A DNA stretch of 64,000 nt, from NCBI GenBank assembly GCA_903895725.1, contig CAITUV010000048.1, forward strand, positions 8,474 through 72,473, written 5' to 3'. Source of the stretch: an uncultured Myxococcales bacterium. Its GTDB lineage: Bacteria; Myxococcota_A; UBA9042; CAIXZC01. A program made the position numbers and the translations under genes. Shown here in pieces: positions 52,089 through 59,682 of the stretch. Each line of letters starts with the position of its first letter. Position 1 is the first letter of the stretch. The notes beneath the pieces are model-generated. The model ran no database searches. It was not told the origin of the DNA and saw only the letters and a program-made list of their open reading frames with translations.

Positions 52089-52142
52089 CAACGGGCTTGC
52101 GCGTGTGGTTTGCTGGCAGGAAGGTTGACGGTGGAGGTCGGC

Positions 52143-55100
52143 ATGATCGCACGGAAGCACTTCTGGCTCGTTGCTTCGCTCCTGTTTTCTGCCGGATGCG
52201 GCGGCGGGGGAGAGATCATCTCGATCGAGGATGTTGCGCTGGACCAGGCGGGAGAGACTGCGGACGCGGTCATGGCTCCCGAGGTCTCCGAGGCCGCGGC
52301 GGACCTCGTCCCCATCCCGGATGCGACACCCGAAGCAGCAGTCGATGCCACGCTGCCGGACGGCTGGGTCGAGCCCGGCGCGTTTGGAGCCCCGTGCTTT
52401 GGCGGGACCGATTGTGCCTCAGGGCTCTGCATCCGGACGACGGCCGGCATGCAGTGCACGGGGCCGTGCGTCGACGAGTGCCCGCAGGGGTTCAAGTGCG
52501 TTTCGTACGAGGGAGGCGGGCCGGACATCATGTTCGTGTGCGTCGATCCGTTCCTGACCCTGTGCCGTCCCTGCTCGACCAATGCGGACTGCCAGGGCAA
52601 CGAGGATGCGTGGGCGGGGGAGCGGTGTGCGTCCTACGGTGCTGCCGGCAGCTTCTGCTCCATGCCGTGTGCGCAGGTGGACGACTGTCCGGCAGGCTAC
52701 CTCTGCGAGGAGACCGTGGATTCAAGCGGGGCATCGTCGCTCCAGTGCGTGCTGGCCGAGGGCGAGTGCGAATGCCCGCAGTGGTTTGCGGACGAGGGGG
52801 CTTCGACCTCGTGCTTCGTGGAGAACGAGTGGGGAACGTGCTCCGGTACGCGGGCCTGCACGGCAGCGGGGCTGGCGGCGTGCACGGCAGCGGTCCCGGC
52901 CAAGGAGAGCTGCAACGGGCTCGACGATGACTGCGACGGCCAGGACGACGAGGAGACTGCAGGCGGAACCTGCCCCGTCGTCAACGAGCTCGGCACCTGC
53001 CCGGGCACCACGCTCTGCCTGGACGGAACCGAGACCTGCCAGGGCGCTGCCGCGGCCCCGGAGCAGTGCGACGGGTTGGACAACAACTGTAACGGTACCA
53101 AGGACGAGGGGTTCCCCGATGCAGACGGGGACGGGACCGCAGATTGCCTGGAGAACGACAAGGACAACGACCTGGTGCCGGACTACCTCGACAACTGCCC
53201 GTCGGTGGCCAACTCGGAGCAGAAAGACTTCGACCTGGATACCCTGGGCGATGCGTGCGATCCCGACGACGACGGCGACAAGACCGGGGATGCAACGGAT
53301 TGTGCCCCGCTCGACGACAAGGTGTACCCCGGTGCGACCGAGACCTGCGACGGCAAGGACAACGACTGCAACTACGTTGTGGACGAAGGGTTCCCGGATG
53401 CCGACGTCGACGGCTGGAAGGACTGCACCGACCCGGACGACGACAACGACGGCAGCGCGGATGCTGCAGACTGTATGCCGCTTGACGCGGAGGCTCACCC
53501 CGGTGCAGTCGAGACCTGCAATGGCAAGGACGACGACTGCGACTTTGCCATCGACGAGACCTTTCCCGATCTGGATGGCGACGGACAGGCGGACTGCGTG
53601 GACAGCGACGTCGACGGCGACGGTCTCGGCAACGGCGACGACAACTGCCCCCAGGTCGCCAACGCGGATCAGACCGACCTCGACGGCGACCAGGTAGGCG
53701 ATGCCTGCGACCCGGACAAGGACGGCGACGCCATCCCCGAGCTTGCGGACAACTGCCCGCTTACCAAGAACCCGGCCCAGGCCGATACCGACCAGGATGG
53801 ACAGGGCGATGCCTGCGACGATGACGACGACGGCGACGGCTACGGCGACGGCGCCGACAACTGCCCGCTTGCCAAGAACCCGTCCCAGGCCGACCTCGAC
53901 CAGGATGGCGTCGGAGACGCGTGCGAGGGGGATCTGGACGGTGACGGTACTCCGGATTCCCTCGACTGTGCGCCGCTGAACGCCACCGTGCACCCCGGGG
54001 CATTCGAGGCCTGTAACGGCGCGGACGACAACTGCAATGGAACCGTGGACGAGGGGGCACCGGACACGGACTTCGACGGTTTCAAGAACTGTGTCGACCC
54101 GGACGATGATGGGGACGGCGACCCGGATGACGCGGACTGTGCGCCGCTCAACCTTGCGGTGCACCACGCTGCGGTCGAGAGCTGCAACGCCATCGACGAT
54201 GATTGCGACGGCCAGATCGACGAGGGGCTCGGGGCACTTTCGTGCGGGAAGGGCGTGTGCGCTCACAAGATTCCCGCCTGTCTCGACGGCAAGCAGCAGA
54301 CTTGCGATCCATTCCAGGGAATCCAGGAAGAAGTGTGCGACGGCAAGGACAACGATTGCGATGGGTTGACGGACGAGGACCAGGGCAAGCTGACGTGCGG
54401 CCTCGGGACGTGCGTGCACACCGTACCCGCCTGCCAGGAGGGGAAGGACAACGTGTGCGACCCCGCAGCCGGTGCCGTCCAGGAAGTGTGTGACGGCAAG
54501 GACAACGACTGCGATGGGGCGGTGGACGAGGAGCTGGGACAGCTCGCCTGCGGCAAGGGCGTCTGCTTCCATACGGTCAAAGCCTGCATCGGCGGAGAGC
54601 CTCAGCCATGCGAACCGTTCCAGGGAGCTTTGCCCGAAGCCTGTGACGGGCTGGACAACGACTGCGACGGAAGCGTCGACGAGAATCTGGGGGAGACATC
54701 CTGCGGCCTGGGTCCCTGCGAGCACACGGTCCCCTACTGTGCCGGGGGCAAGGTGCAGCAGTGCAACGCGTTCGAGGGCGCTGCCGTCGAGGCCTGCGAC
54801 AGCGTGGACAACGACTGCGACGGGCTGGTCGACGAGGACATGGGGTTTGCGAGCTGCGGTCTGGGCGTCTGCTTCCACATCGTCAAGCTCTGCTCCGGCG
54901 GGGTGCTCCAGGTGTGCGATCCGCTGGAGGGCGCTGCCGGGGAGGCGTGCGACGGCGTGGACAACGACTGCGATGGCATCGCCGATGACGGGTTGGGCGA
55001 CATCACCTGCGGCCTGGGGGAGTGCGTCCACACGGTTCCCGTCTGCAAGGAGGGCAAGCAGAACAGCTGTGATCCGCTCGAGGGGGAATCCCCCGAGGCG

Positions 55101-55955
55101 TGCGACGGCAAGGACAACGATTGCGACGGTCAGACGGACGAGTCCTTCGCCGACCAGGACGGCGACGGCCAGGCAGACTGCGTCGATCTCGACGACGATG
55201 GCGACGCGGATCCGGATGGGACGGACTGTGCACCGCTCGATCCGACCATCGGCTCCAACCAGAAGGAGAAGTGCTTCGACGGCAAGGACAACGACTGCGA
55301 CGGAAGCACCGACGACGATCCGGAGTGCATTCTCAAGAGCTGCGCCGAGCTCCTGGCCTCGAACCCCGCACTGCCGTCGGGGACCTACACGATTGACCCG
55401 GACGGCGGGGGCGGGAAGCCCTCGTTCGCCGCGTGGTGCGAGATGGCGCTGGACGGAGGGGGCTGGACCCTGGTCTGGAAGCACTCCTACTACGAAGTGG
55501 GGGCACCGACGGACACCATGCGCTTCTACAGCACCAGCGCAAAGGAGTGCAAGGACACGACGGCCGGATGGTGCAATGTGCCGGGCAAGCTGTCCGTTGG
55601 CAAGACGCAGCAGCTCGTCATCGCCACCTACCAGGGGACGACCGTTTACGCTTACAAGGGGGACTTGAATCCCAAGATCGACTCGAGCTGGGAAGGCGCC
55701 ATACTCAAGAACGCAACCAGCCTGGTCGACAAGTGCGTCAACAACGTGGGAGTGGCCCCGGAGCCCGAGGTGGGAGGGCATGCGATGCCCGGCATCACGT
55801 TCGACAAGGCGACCCCCAACGACTATGTGTCCAATTGCGATACGGATCGGTACGGAGGGGGCTCGGATTGCCGCTGGGAGAACTGCGGTCTGCCGGGAAA
55901 CATCGCCCCCTCGAGCACTCACGTGCAGATGACCGTGATGATCTACGTGCGCTGA
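52143..55955 (+). CDS. Cys-rich lipoprotein with a thrombospondin type-3 repeat array, seven or so MopE-like CDGKDNDCDG modules, and a C-terminal fibrinogen-related domain (FReD)
   Basis: RBS GGTGGAGG. 'MIARKHFWLVASLLFSAGCGGGG'. TSP3: 'DNCPSVANSEQKDFDLDTLGDACDPDDDGD', 'DNCPQVANADQTDLDGDQVGDACDPDKDGD', 'DNCPLAKNPSQADLDQDGVGDACEGDLDGDG'. FReD: 'CAELLASNPALPSGTYTIDPDGGGGKPSFAAWCEMALDGGGWTLVWKHSY...'. Confidence 0.85.
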   Translation: MIARKHFWLVASLLFSAGCGGGGEIISIEDVALDQAGETADAVMAPEVSEAAADLVPIPDATPEAAVDATLPDGWVEPGAFGAPCFGGTDCASGLCIRTTAGMQCTGPCVDECPQGFKCVSYEGGGPDIMFVCVDPFLTLCRPCSTNADCQGNEDAWAGERCASYGAAGSFCSMPCAQVDDCPAGYLCEETVDSSGASSLQCVLAEGECECPQWFADEGASTSCFVENEWGTCSGTRACTAAGLAACTAAVPAKESCNGLDDDCDGQDDEETAGGTCPVVNELGTCPGTTLCLDGTETCQGAAAAPEQCDGLDNNCNGTKDEGFPDADGDGTADCLENDKDNDLVPDYLDNCPSVANSEQKDFDLDTLGDACDPDDDGDKTGDATDCAPLDDKVYPGATETCDGKDNDCNYVVDEGFPDADVDGWKDCTDPDDDNDGSADAADCMPLDAEAHPGAVETCNGKDDDCDFAIDETFPDLDGDGQADCVDSDVDGDGLGNGDDNCPQVANADQTDLDGDQVGDACDPDKDGDAIPELADNCPLTKNPAQADTDQDGQGDACDDDDDGDGYGDGADNCPLAKNPSQADLDQDGVGDACEGDLDGDGTPDSLDCAPLNATVHPGAFEACNGADDNCNGTVDEGAPDTDFDGFKNCVDPDDDGDGDPDDADCAPLNLAVHHAAVESCNAIDDDCDGQIDEGLGALSCGKGVCAHKIPACLDGKQQTCDPFQGIQEEVCDGKDNDCDGLTDEDQGKLTCGLGTCVHTVPACQEGKDNVCDPAAGAVQEVCDGKDNDCDGAVDEELGQLACGKGVCFHTVKACIGGEPQPCEPFQGALPEACDGLDNDCDGSVDENLGETSCGLGPCEHTVPYCAGGKVQQCNAFEGAAVEACDSVDNDCDGLVDEDMGFASCGLGVCFHIVKLCSGGVLQVCDPLEGAAGEACDGVDNDCDGIADDGLGDITCGLGECVHTVPVCKEGKQNSCDPLEGESPEACDGKDNDCDGQTDESFADQDGDGQADCVDLDDDGDADPDGTDCAPLDPTIGSNQKEKCFDGKDNDCDGSTDDDPECILKSCAELLASNPALPSGTYTIDPDGGGGKPSFAAWCEMALDGGGWTLVWKHSYYEVGAPTDTMRFYSTSAKECKDTTAGWCNVPGKLSVGKTQQLVIATYQGTTVYAYKGDLNPKIDSSWEGAILKNATSLVDKCVNNVGVAPEPEVGGHAMPGITFDKATPNDYVSNCDTDRYGGGSDCRWENCGLPGNIAPSSTHVQMTVMIYVR
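53157..53950 (+). repeat. Thrombospondin type-3-like Ca-binding repeat array (D-x-D-x-D-G-x-x-D-x-C / DNCP-x-x-x-N-x-x-Q-x-D)
   Basis: Motif recognition; see the parent CDS. Confidence 0.7.
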
Positions 55956-55992
55956 GCAGAAGGTGACAGTCTTTCAACCGGGAGATGCCGTC

Positions 55993-58900
55993 ATGACCAC
56001 TCGCAAGCTGTTTCGGATTACGCTCCTGAGCGTTCTCGTTCCGGCCGTCGGATGCAGCACTTCAGGCAACACGGTGGAGAAACCGGAGCCGGATCTCGGC
56101 ATCGAGGTCGTCGACTCCAGCGTCGCTCCGGAAGTCGTACCCCCGGATGCCATGGAAGTCGAGCCCGAGGTGCCTCAGGTCGAGTTGCTCGTTGAGGCCG
56201 TGGAGGAATCGGGTGGCCCGAAGTGCGCACCGGGCGAAGGGTGCTTCCTGGACCCATGCCAGGAGAACGATTCCTGCCAATCGGGCTGGTGCGTGGACCA
56301 CATGGGGGCCGGAGTCTGCACCATTGCCTGCGAGGAGGAGTGCCCTCCCGGCTGGTCGTGCCAGCAGATCGGCTCGGGTCCCGACGTGAACTACGTCTGC
56401 ATCTCGAACCACGCAAACCTTTGCCGGCCTTGCGGCAGCGGGGACAACTGCAAGAGCCCGGGGGGTGCGGAGGACGTGTGCGTGGACTACGGTGCGGAGG
56501 GCAGCTTCTGCGGGGGAACCTGCAACAGCGACGAGGATTGCCCCTGGGGTTTCTCGTGCATCGAAGCCTCCACGGTGGATGGAATCGAAGTGAAGCAATG
56601 CGTGGCCGATGCGGGAGTCTGCCCGTGTACCGAAAAGTCCGTGAGCCTGGCATTGTGGACCCCTTGCCAGAGCAGCAACGAGCACGGCGTGTGCCAGGGG
56701 CAGAGGGTGTGTACCGAGGCCGGGCTGTCCGCGTGTGACGCGGCTGTGCCCGCACAGGAATCGTGCAACGGCATCGACGATGATTGCGACGGGGAGGTCG
56801 ACGAGCCGCAGCAGGTGGGCGGAGAGTATATTTCGCTCTGCTCGGACGGGAATTCGTGCACGAAGGATCAGTGCGCGGGCGTTGACGGCTGCACTAACAC
56901 GGCGCTCAACGAGGGCGAGTGCATGGACGGAGATGCGTGCACCGTGGGGGACCATTGCCAGGAAGGGACGTGCGTGGGGCTCCCTGTCGCCTGCGATGAC
57001 GGTGACCCCTGCACCGACGACCTGTGCGACGGACTGGGAGGCTGCAAGACCGAGTTCAACACCGCTGCGTGCGACGACGGAGATGCGTGCACGGTCGCGG
57101 ATGGCTGCGTCGAGGGGGTGTGCGGCGGCGTTGCCGTCCCTTGTGAGTGCCAGGCGGATTCCGATTGCCTGTCACTCGAGGATGGCGATGTCTGCAACGG
57201 GACACTGTTCTGCGACAAGGGGAAGTGGCCGTATCTTTGTGCGGTCGAGCCGGGAACCGAAATCACGTGCCCGCTGCCGCCGGCCGGGAAGGATGCGTTC
57301 TGCCAGGCCACTGCGTGCGACAGCGGGACCGGGAAGTGCTCAATCGTCCCGGCTCACGAGGGTTTCGCCTGTGATGACGGGGATGCCTGCACCATCGGTG
57401 AGCACTGCGCCTCCGGAACCTGCGGCCAGGGGGCCGGGCTCGGATGCCAGGACGACAATCCCTGCACGGACGACTCGTGCGAGCCTGGCGTCGGGTGCAT
57501 CCACAAGGCGAACGCTGCACCGTGCAGCGACGGGAACGTGTGCACGACGGACGACATGTGCTCGGCCACTGTATGCGTCGGCGGAGCGCTTCTGGCCTGC
57601 GACGACGGCTCGGTGTGCACCGGCACGGAGACCTGCGATCCTTCCGTCGGCTGCAAAGCGGGCCTCTCCCTCGTGTGCGATGATCAGGACGCCTGCAACG
57701 GAAAGGAGAGCTGCCACCCGGCCAAGGGGTGCCTGGCCGGAATCCCTCCGGTTTGTGACGACTTGAACCCATGTACCGACGACTCGTGCGACCCTCTGTC
57801 GGGGTGCGTTCACAAGGGGAATACCGCCGCCTGTGACGACGGCAACGCCTGCACCACGGGGGACAAGTGCTCGGCAGGAAGCTGCCTCGCCGGTGAGGCG
57901 ACAAGCTGCAACGACGGCAATCTCTGCACGACCGACACCTGCGTGCCGGCCAAGGGATGCATGTTCCTGCTCAACACGGTCCCGTGCGACGACGGCGACT
58001 TGTGCACGACCGGGGACCATTGCTCCCTGGGGGCCTGCATCTCGTCGGGGAAGCTGACCTGCAACGACGGGAATCCGTGCACGGCCGACTCGTGCACCCC
58101 CGGAGCCGGCTGCCAGTTCGTGCCCACCTCGGCCGCGTGCGACGACGGCAATGCGTGCACCTCGGGCGATGCCTGCACCAAGGGCCAGTGCCTCGGGCCG
58201 GACGTGGTGAGCTGCGACGACGACAATGTCTGCACGAAGGACTTCTGCTCCCCGTTGACCGGCTGCGGGCACAGCCCTCTGGCCGGGCCGTGTGAGGACG
58301 GGACCGAGTGCAGCGTCGGGGATACCTGCCAGAACGGAGTGTGCGTGGCCGGGCCACCGCTCGCCTGCGACGATGGGAACCAGTGCACCGTCGACGTCTG
58401 CGACCCCAAGCTGGGGTGCGTGTACAAGGCATTCGTGGGAGGCTGCGACGACGGAAACCCGTGCACCCTGGTGGATGTGTGTCAGGGCACGGTCTGCGCA
58501 CCCGGGTTGCCCAAGGACTGCAACGACGACAACCAGTGCACTACGGACACCTGCGACCCGGCCAAGCTGTGCGTGAACAGCCCGAAGGCCGGCAACTGCG
58601 ACGACAGCAACGCGTGTACGACGGGAGAGGCCTGCCAGGCGGGCGTCTGCAAGGGGGGCACCCCCCTGGACTGCAACGATGGGAAGCCGTGCACGACCGA
58701 CTCGTGCGACCCCCTCCTGGGGTGCGGACACATCGACACTGTCCCGTGCTGCGGGAATGCCAAGCTCGAGGCGGGCGAGGAGTGCGACGACGGAAACATC
58801 GTGGGCGGGGACGGATGCGAGCCTGACTGCAAGCAGTTCACCCCGGTCAGCGTGACGTTCAACAACTGTGGGCAGACGGGCCCGTCGGGGCCAAACCAGA

Positions 58901-59682
58901 GCCAGTGCAACAGCGCCTACTCGGGCAACCCGCTCCTCAACGGCAAGGTGACCGTCACTGCCGGCATCCAGTTCTGGACCGTGCCGTACACCGGGACCTA
59001 CCGGATCGAGGCTTTCGGAGCCAGGGGCGGCTGCAACGGCGGCAACGGTGCGCGGATGCGGGGCGATTTCGCCCTGACTCAGGGCACCCAGCTCAAGATT
59101 CTGGTCGGACAGCAGGGATCGGCTGCCCCCGCAAGCGTGGGCAACGGAGGTGGCGGTGGGACGTACGTGGCGAAGGCCGACAATGCCCCCATCATCGTTG
59201 CGGGCGGCGGTGGAGGAACGGGGCACGATTGCTACGCGGACTACGACATGAGCGGAGTCACCGGCATCGATGGAATCAAGGGCAAGTACGAGACCGCCGG
59301 GCTGGGCGGAGTGAACGGACAGGGCGGCGGATACGGGCTGACCACCCAGGGCGTTCCCAACGCCGGCGGTGGCGGCGGCTTCTACGGGGACGGCGGGAGC
59401 ATCGGACATGCCAATGGCGGGAAGGCCTTCGTGAACGGAGGCGTGGGCGGCTCCACGACCGGAGGATTCGGCGGCGGCGGCGGCTCGGACCAGTTCATCT
59501 ACGGCTGCGGCGCATCGCCACACGGCGGCAGCGGCGGCGGAGGCTACTCGGGCGGCGGCGGCGGCGCAACGAACTGCAACGGCCCGGGCGGTGGCGGCGG
59601 CTCCTACAACAACGGTGCCAACCCGTCCAACTCAGCTGGCGCCAATTCGGGGCACGGCAGCGTGACCATCAATCGCATCTGA
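55993..59682 (+). CDS. Cys-rich lipoprotein with about 13 Dictyostelium-type (CTDC) repeats, one Myxococcus cysteine-rich repeat, and a C-terminal ALK/LTK-like glycine-rich (GlyR/TNF-like) domain
   Basis: 'MTTRKLFRITLLSVLVPAVGCSTSG'. CTDC: 'CDDGNPCTDDSC', 'CSDGNVCTTDDMC', 'CNDGNLCTTDTC', 'CDDGNQCTVDVC'. Myxococcus cysteine-rich repeat: 'CCGNAKLEAGEECDDGNIVGGDGCEPDC'. GlyR: 'FNNCGQTGPSGPNQSQCNSAYSGN...GIQFWTVPYTGTYRIEAFGARGG...LKILVGQQG...GGGGGTYVAK...IIVAGGGGG...GGFGGGGGS...GGGGYSGGGGG'. Confidence 0.85.
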   Translation: MTTRKLFRITLLSVLVPAVGCSTSGNTVEKPEPDLGIEVVDSSVAPEVVPPDAMEVEPEVPQVELLVEAVEESGGPKCAPGEGCFLDPCQENDSCQSGWCVDHMGAGVCTIACEEECPPGWSCQQIGSGPDVNYVCISNHANLCRPCGSGDNCKSPGGAEDVCVDYGAEGSFCGGTCNSDEDCPWGFSCIEASTVDGIEVKQCVADAGVCPCTEKSVSLALWTPCQSSNEHGVCQGQRVCTEAGLSACDAAVPAQESCNGIDDDCDGEVDEPQQVGGEYISLCSDGNSCTKDQCAGVDGCTNTALNEGECMDGDACTVGDHCQEGTCVGLPVACDDGDPCTDDLCDGLGGCKTEFNTAACDDGDACTVADGCVEGVCGGVAVPCECQADSDCLSLEDGDVCNGTLFCDKGKWPYLCAVEPGTEITCPLPPAGKDAFCQATACDSGTGKCSIVPAHEGFACDDGDACTIGEHCASGTCGQGAGLGCQDDNPCTDDSCEPGVGCIHKANAAPCSDGNVCTTDDMCSATVCVGGALLACDDGSVCTGTETCDPSVGCKAGLSLVCDDQDACNGKESCHPAKGCLAGIPPVCDDLNPCTDDSCDPLSGCVHKGNTAACDDGNACTTGDKCSAGSCLAGEATSCNDGNLCTTDTCVPAKGCMFLLNTVPCDDGDLCTTGDHCSLGACISSGKLTCNDGNPCTADSCTPGAGCQFVPTSAACDDGNACTSGDACTKGQCLGPDVVSCDDDNVCTKDFCSPLTGCGHSPLAGPCEDGTECSVGDTCQNGVCVAGPPLACDDGNQCTVDVCDPKLGCVYKAFVGGCDDGNPCTLVDVCQGTVCAPGLPKDCNDDNQCTTDTCDPAKLCVNSPKAGNCDDSNACTTGEACQAGVCKGGTPLDCNDGKPCTTDSCDPLLGCGHIDTVPCCGNAKLEAGEECDDGNIVGGDGCEPDCKQFTPVSVTFNNCGQTGPSGPNQSQCNSAYSGNPLLNGKVTVTAGIQFWTVPYTGTYRIEAFGARGGCNGGNGARMRGDFALTQGTQLKILVGQQGSAAPASVGNGGGGGTYVAKADNAPIIVAGGGGGTGHDCYADYDMSGVTGIDGIKGKYETAGLGGVNGQGGGYGLTTQGVPNAGGGGGFYGDGGSIGHANGGKAFVNGGVGGSTTGGFGGGGGSDQFIYGCGASPHGGSGGGGYSGGGGGATNCNGPGGGGGSYNNGANPSNSAGANSGHGSVTINRI
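56839..58735 (+). repeat. Array of about 13 Dicty_CTDC-like repeats (C-x-D-x-N-x-C-T-x-D-x-C, about 48 aa period)
   Basis: See the parent CDS. Confidence 0.7.

Follow-up and report, generated by a model that had tools for sequence, protein, structure and literature searches.

The window analysed here (the whole stretch of DNA, 64,000 nucleotides) carries a gene for a large, cysteine-rich, predicted lipoprotein that ends in a domain of the type found in the receptors ALK and LTK. The features of this gene and of the gene upstream of it are:

52110–55955, + strand: upstream paralogue whose stalk consists of TSP3/MopE repeats and whose head is of the fibrinogen-like GGGWT type (Pfam, NCBIfam)
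55993–59682, stop codon included, + strand: CDS of the 1229-aa cysteine-rich lipoprotein (ORF list; exact product called on eight metagenome contigs)
55993–56055, + strand: signal peptide with the lipobox-like end MTTRKLFRITLLSVLVPAVG before C21 (read by eye from the translation)
56056–56220, + strand: acidic linker with a high content of Pro, Glu and Val, aa 22–76 (translation)
56221–56838, + strand: N-terminal Cys-rich module, aa 77–282 (tblastn against the window)
56839–58737, + strand: stalk of CTDC (Dictyostelium-type) Cys repeats (Pfam PF00526, E 1.4e-45, 10 stretches)
58747–58833, + strand: one myxobacterial cysteine-rich acidic repeat, TIGR02232, equivalent to DUF4215 (NCBIfam E 7.7e-8)
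58837–59679, + strand: ALK/LTK-type TG domain (TNF-like plus polyglycine-II glycine-rich), 281 aa
58837–59202, + strand: N-terminal half of the head, with TNF-like beta strands, Cys11–Cys24 and the first Gly motifs (ALK match, conservation profile, DSSP)
59203–59622, + strand: glycine-rich region of the head, 40% Gly (aligned with the ALK polyglycine-II helices 841–956)
59623–59679, + strand: C-terminal beta strands (…GHGSVTINRI) leading back to the TNF-like sandwich (DSSP; aligned with ALK …EGHGEVN)

The longest open reading frame opens with GTG at 55963, and gene callers begin at the ATG at 55993, as the original prediction had it. The ATG version is the one on record, and the GTG start was rejected when an exact-sequence look-up returned no match to it. 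The end given earlier for the head domain (59679) was retained, but the start (58838) was one base out of frame and is corrected here to 58837. The stop codon (59680–59682) directly follows the head. A tblastn search found no second copy of the TG domain in the window, and no promoter-like or terminator-like sites were seen around the gene.

From its N-terminus the protein consists of a lipobox, an acidic linker, a Cys-rich module, the CTDC stalk, one disulfide repeat and the TG head. The putative lipobox (read by eye), with Ala in place of Leu at position –3, contains the invariant Cys and marks the protein as a predicted bacterial lipoprotein. By motif count, the CTDC repeats include seven units with an exact period of 51 aa and there are 131 Cys within the first 948 aa; the repeats span about 630 aa of the stalk. 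The fusion of the head to CTDC repeats on a lipoprotein, which had been proposed from the sequence, is borne out by the Pfam match and the lipobox-like signal. The TIGR02232 repeat lies immediately N-terminal of the head, a junction also seen in homologues with PF13948, and the overall architecture is kept in homologue L008 (35% identity across aa 34–1069).

Four or more further giant ORFs of the window share the N-terminal module, with matches at 52143, 8919, 3341 and 19498 (tblastn with the first 300 aa as query and the window as target; E 1e-17 to 1e-34). The upstream paralogue has this module at 37% identity together with a lipobox of its own (…LLFSAG before C, read by eye), and it lies on the same strand. 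Because the gap between the two genes is only 38 nt, the arrangement suggests that they are co-transcribed. Neighbouring paralogues join the same N-terminal module to other heads, one of them fibrinogen-like, and CBM6/35 and FGE-sulfatase domains occur in further large exported proteins of the window. Myxobacterial signatures seen were TIGR02232, MYXO-CTERM and an MtsC-like match; the last of these sits in the upstream gene, with its thrombospondin-type repeats, and is weak (136.7 against a cut-off of 350 bits). The source organism, which is uncultured, is probably myxobacterial because of these family signatures and because the nearest relatives of the domain are from Myxococcota MAGs. As a comparison, the myxobacterial surface protein TraA has a PA14 head, Cys-rich repeats and MYXO-CTERM. 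TraA and MtsC (NCBIfam NF047638) have the same anchor–stalk–head logic as the window protein and the same kind of Cys-rich acidic repeats (TIGR02232), whereas the window protein is reversed, with the lipid anchor at its N-terminus and the head at its C-terminus, and unlike TraA it has neither PA14 nor MYXO-CTERM.

The last approximately 280 aa had been predicted to match the glycine-rich region of ALK and LTK block for block. All of the motif blocks are present (FNNCGQTGPSGPNQSQCNSAY, GIQFWTVPYTGTYRI, GARGG, LKILVGQQG, GGGGGTYVAK, PIIVAGGGGG and GGFGGGGG...GGGGYSGG), and every one aligns with its human ALK counterpart in the same order. Cys11 and Cys24 of the head align with the ALK pair (FTTCG…AQC); across homologues Cys11 is at least 60% conserved and Cys24 40–60%. 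With the whole domain as query, phmmer gave E-values of 2.7e-17 for ALK, 3.7e-14 for LTK and 3.9e-6 for SCD-2 of C. elegans. Conservation is highest in the N-terminal, TNF-like half. In the glycine-rich part the Gly motifs are conserved and the intervening loops, which are hot spots of insertion and deletion, vary in length and sequence. Near-invariant positions are mostly Gly and hydrophobic core, with one Gln and one Ser.

A domain with a C-terminal half of 40% Gly could resemble ALK as a low-complexity artefact, aligned by Gly composition with no common ancestry. On its own, the glycine-rich stretch reaches no more than 10.7 bits at a bias of 38.5, the Pfam score is under threshold, and the identity to ALK, about 42% over 230 aligned positions, drops to 25% once G–G columns are removed. 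This explanation is refuted by the N-terminal 95 non-Gly residues, which on their own match ALK with 60.8 bits at a bias of 0.9, by the match of a 61-sequence profile to ALK in hhalign (99.7% probability, E 4.7e-27) and by the structural matches described below, and we give it practically no weight.

The check proposed in the original prediction, a search with the Pfam family 'Gly_rich', named the right family, now ALK_LTK_GRD (PF12810), but the isolated domain scored under the cut-off (E 6.7e-4; 20.2 against 24.5 bits). The match covers residues 51–205 only, and none is reported on the full-length protein. Among close homologues, L004 and P0005 pass and L017 falls just under the cut-off (23.2 bits); no PF12810 match is reported in homologues L012, L009 and L008. 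The PF12810 model is insensitive for the branch to which the window domain belongs.

The TG domain of ALK and LTK is a TNF-like beta sandwich bearing a rigid lattice of polyglycine-II (PGII) helices. An AF2 model of the window head, made without templates, had a pLDDT of 93.4 and a pTM of 0.93, and a Foldseek search with it returned ALK, phage fibre tips and TNF or C1q heads (E 2e-15, TM up to 0.72), all of which are binding modules. The human ALK and LTK domain is represented by PDB 7LRZ, 7N00, 7NX1 and 7NX3. In the model, the TNF-like beta sandwich and the glycine-rich subdomain are predicted to form one compact unit, with DSSP strands in the N-terminal half (E5–8, 39–60, 71–89 and 109–122) and again at the C-terminal end (E266–270 and E275–280). 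The glycine-rich region has no DSSP helix or strand and a pLDDT mostly above 85. All 14 of the PGII segments of ALK, with ranges taken from the literature (PMC13243192), align with Gly-rich segments of the head; judged from the alignment and DSSP, a PGII lattice may be present there. Sequence, profile and predicted structure agree, and the assignment of the head as a homologue of the TNF-like plus glycine-rich ligand-binding domain of ALK/LTK is fully supported by these comparisons.

ALK is a receptor of major importance in cancer and development, and in 2021 its ligand-binding domain was reportedly described as a very unusual fold. The same domain is present on a bacterial lipoprotein at about 42% identity. 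The expectation that a prokaryotic counterpart would be unusual was not upheld. A profile of the domain finds at least 13,140 protein clusters at 50% identity, from many bacterial and archaeal phyla and from many phage and giant-virus contigs. Cultivable carriers include Fibrella forsythiae, Pontibacter populi and Salinimicrobium soli. The family is already covered by Pfam PF12810, PHROG 22713 (window domain, E 1.6e-33) and automatic UniProt names; PF12810, NCBI 'glycine-rich protein' and PHROG 22713 and 7388 are the same sequence family as the head, with the window protein under the Pfam cut-off, and many close homologues have a precomputed PF12810 match. Because thousands of bacteria, archaea and viruses have the domain, the locus is an ordinary member of a poorly studied family. 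No assigned function was found among the members found of PF12810, NCBI 'glycine-rich protein' and PHROG 22713 and 7388, and our literature search on bacterial homologues of ALK or PF12810 gave nothing useful apart from papers on phage fibres.

Domain boundaries are identical in 110 of 120 homologues, and the domain may be N-terminal, C-terminal or internal in its host protein, with up to eight copies per protein. Judged from these sequences, the TG domain is a discrete mobile module. Its cellular relatives are always extracellular, in host proteins with signal peptides; partner domains include HYR, PKD, cadherin-like, Ig-like, Sushi and EGF, and the sorting signals include the T9SS C-terminal domain, IPTL-CTERM and a pilin N-methylation motif. 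In uncultured bacteria, archaea and viruses, the TG domain is one of the more frequent extracellular modules. Annotation misses it in the window protein, which is labelled by its CTDC repeats only, and mislabels it in phage proteins named 'receptor protein-tyrosine kinase'. For microbiologists the family provides a candidate adhesion head, and for ALK structural biologists simple microbial scaffold models. The window locus itself adds little beyond one further member with a clear anchor–stalk–head layout.

Among viruses, sequence homologues occur at 78 IMG/VR loci, without signal peptides and with the domain mostly C-terminal, and one of them shares its N-terminus with cyanophage fibre or virion structural proteins. 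In phages the domain is located at the tips of fibre proteins. A tblastn search with the domain against 50,697 GenBank phage records gave no match at E 1e-5, and all the viral homologues seen came from uncultured viral contigs and BFVD models. The fold of the distal domain pair is common to the window head and to tips of the type of Pam3 gp24 (7YPX/7YFW). Similar tips are those of Klebsiella phage SCNJ1-Y TFP_Y and mycobacteriophage Bxb1 gp33 and, more distantly, Salmonella phage S16 gp38; the likeness to solved phage tips is at the level of fold only. In cyanophage Pam3, the TNF-like/Gly-rich pair is held responsible for recognition of the host receptor (PMC9608196), and host-adaptation mutations of SCNJ1-Y fall in the glycine-rich domain of its LPS-recognising fibre (PMC12671077). 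The solved examples are virion proteins that form trimers, dock to the baseplate through a helical N-terminus and have a dedicated chaperone. By contrast, the window protein is a signal-peptide lipoprotein with a disulfide-rich stalk in a chromosomal context. Its lipobox signal peptide, Cys-rich stalk and housekeeping and exported bacterial neighbours are not those of a virion protein.

On balance we favour the idea that this is an exported, lipid-anchored surface protein with a stalk that holds the terminal TG head as a binding module. A surface-displayed binding (adhesion) head is our best reading of its role. The analysis establishes the homology, fold, architecture and extracellular targeting of the protein and its place in a very large family of prokaryotes and viruses, and from these we infer the binding or adhesion role and the type of ligand. 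In this arrangement, the predicted anchor is followed by the linker and then by a disulfide-rich stalk, made up of the N-terminal Cys module, the CTDC repeats and one myxobacterial disulfide repeat, which would keep the binding module away from the cell. Related TNF-like/Gly-rich tips of phage fibres work as such modules, and by analogy with them the likely target would be a polymer or a molecule on the surface of another cell, with a glycan or a component of the envelope as the most plausible candidate.

The window head is also the closest structural relative of a cytokine-binding domain and myxobacteria use surface receptors in social behaviour, so the head might act like ALK and sense a small protein or peptide that is secreted as a signal in cell–cell communication, rather than serve as an adhesin for surface polymers. 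We think this unlikely. Because the protein ends at the TG domain, it has no transmembrane or signalling part, and an unsystematic look noticed no conserved gene for a small secreted partner. In ALK, E859, Y966, E974 and E978 form what we take to be the acidic ALKAL-contact surface, a list that reportedly goes back to the 2021 ALK–ALKAL structures; in our alignment these positions do not appear to be conserved, E974 and E978 both being replaced by Ser and E859 falling in a gap. Compared with ALK/LTK, the protein also has no EGF-like domain, transmembrane helix or kinase (Pfam reports CTDC and the glycine-rich domain only) and no MAM or LDLa domains, its head is without the ALK-specific helical insert (783–815), and its TG domain is carried on a bacterial lipoprotein stalk. 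The window protein is not a kinase receptor. Myxobacteria secrete predatory factors, and the large exported neighbours include proteins with phosphodiester glycosidase, FGE-sulfatase, beta-helix and GH99 domains, as might be expected if the protein were a secreted toxin or enzyme, with the head as its effector part and the Cys-rich repeats as no more than a delivery scaffold. Pfam and NCBIfam detected no catalytic family in the domain, however, the few near-invariant residues outside Gly and hydrophobic core are one Gln and one Ser, and the structural relatives are binding modules throughout, which makes this reading quite improbable. We hold it similarly improbable, if a shade less so, that the PGII lattice is itself the functional surface and binds ice, a mineral or another flat surface, as in springtail antifreeze proteins, or that it is only a rigid structural cap lacking a specific ligand. 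In snow-flea and springtail antifreeze proteins the ice-binding scaffold consists of PGII bundles (PMC11364801, PMC13243192), a precedent for such a role, and aquatic and marine metagenomes supplied many of the homologues. Against this, there was no antifreeze protein among the structural matches, it is the TNF-like half that is most conserved, the loops are variable as in binding modules, and the domain is fused to adhesion-type repeats.

The suggestion that this domain hints at the ancestral function of the fold is reasonable for the whole family, but not for the window locus in particular. It would carry no information on ancestry if the bacterial gene were a recent capture of an animal ALK/LTK fragment, for which the identity to human ALK (42–43%) speaks, being above that of human ALK to C. 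elegans SCD-2 (29 vs 66 bits). A recent foreign insertion was rejected because GC content is uniform across the locus (0.63–0.69). The very large prokaryotic and viral diversity of the family, the rank of the window domain in ALK scoring among the collected sequences (89th, not top) and the absence of the helical insert and EGF domain of ALK also argue against capture, which we regard as very improbable. Relationships were read from a nearest-neighbour table; with one ALK and one coral sequence as the eukaryotes in the set, an unrooted tree would give no direction of transfer. The bacterial domain is a closer relative of the coral 'ALK-like' protein (P0027) than ALK is, and the cnidarian gain of the domain may thus have been a separate one. 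We tentatively propose, as a possibility short of an even chance, that the ALK/LTK module descends by horizontal transfer from this very large prokaryotic/viral family of surface and virion-tip binding heads, with a possible second gain in cnidarians, and that bacterial members such as the window lipoprotein keep the ancestral recognition job. That job would have been to recognise envelope glycans or proteins of other cells. If such descent is true, it would mean prey or kin recognition for a myxobacterium, and the family would be an untapped model of ligand binding by a PGII/TNF-like scaffold.

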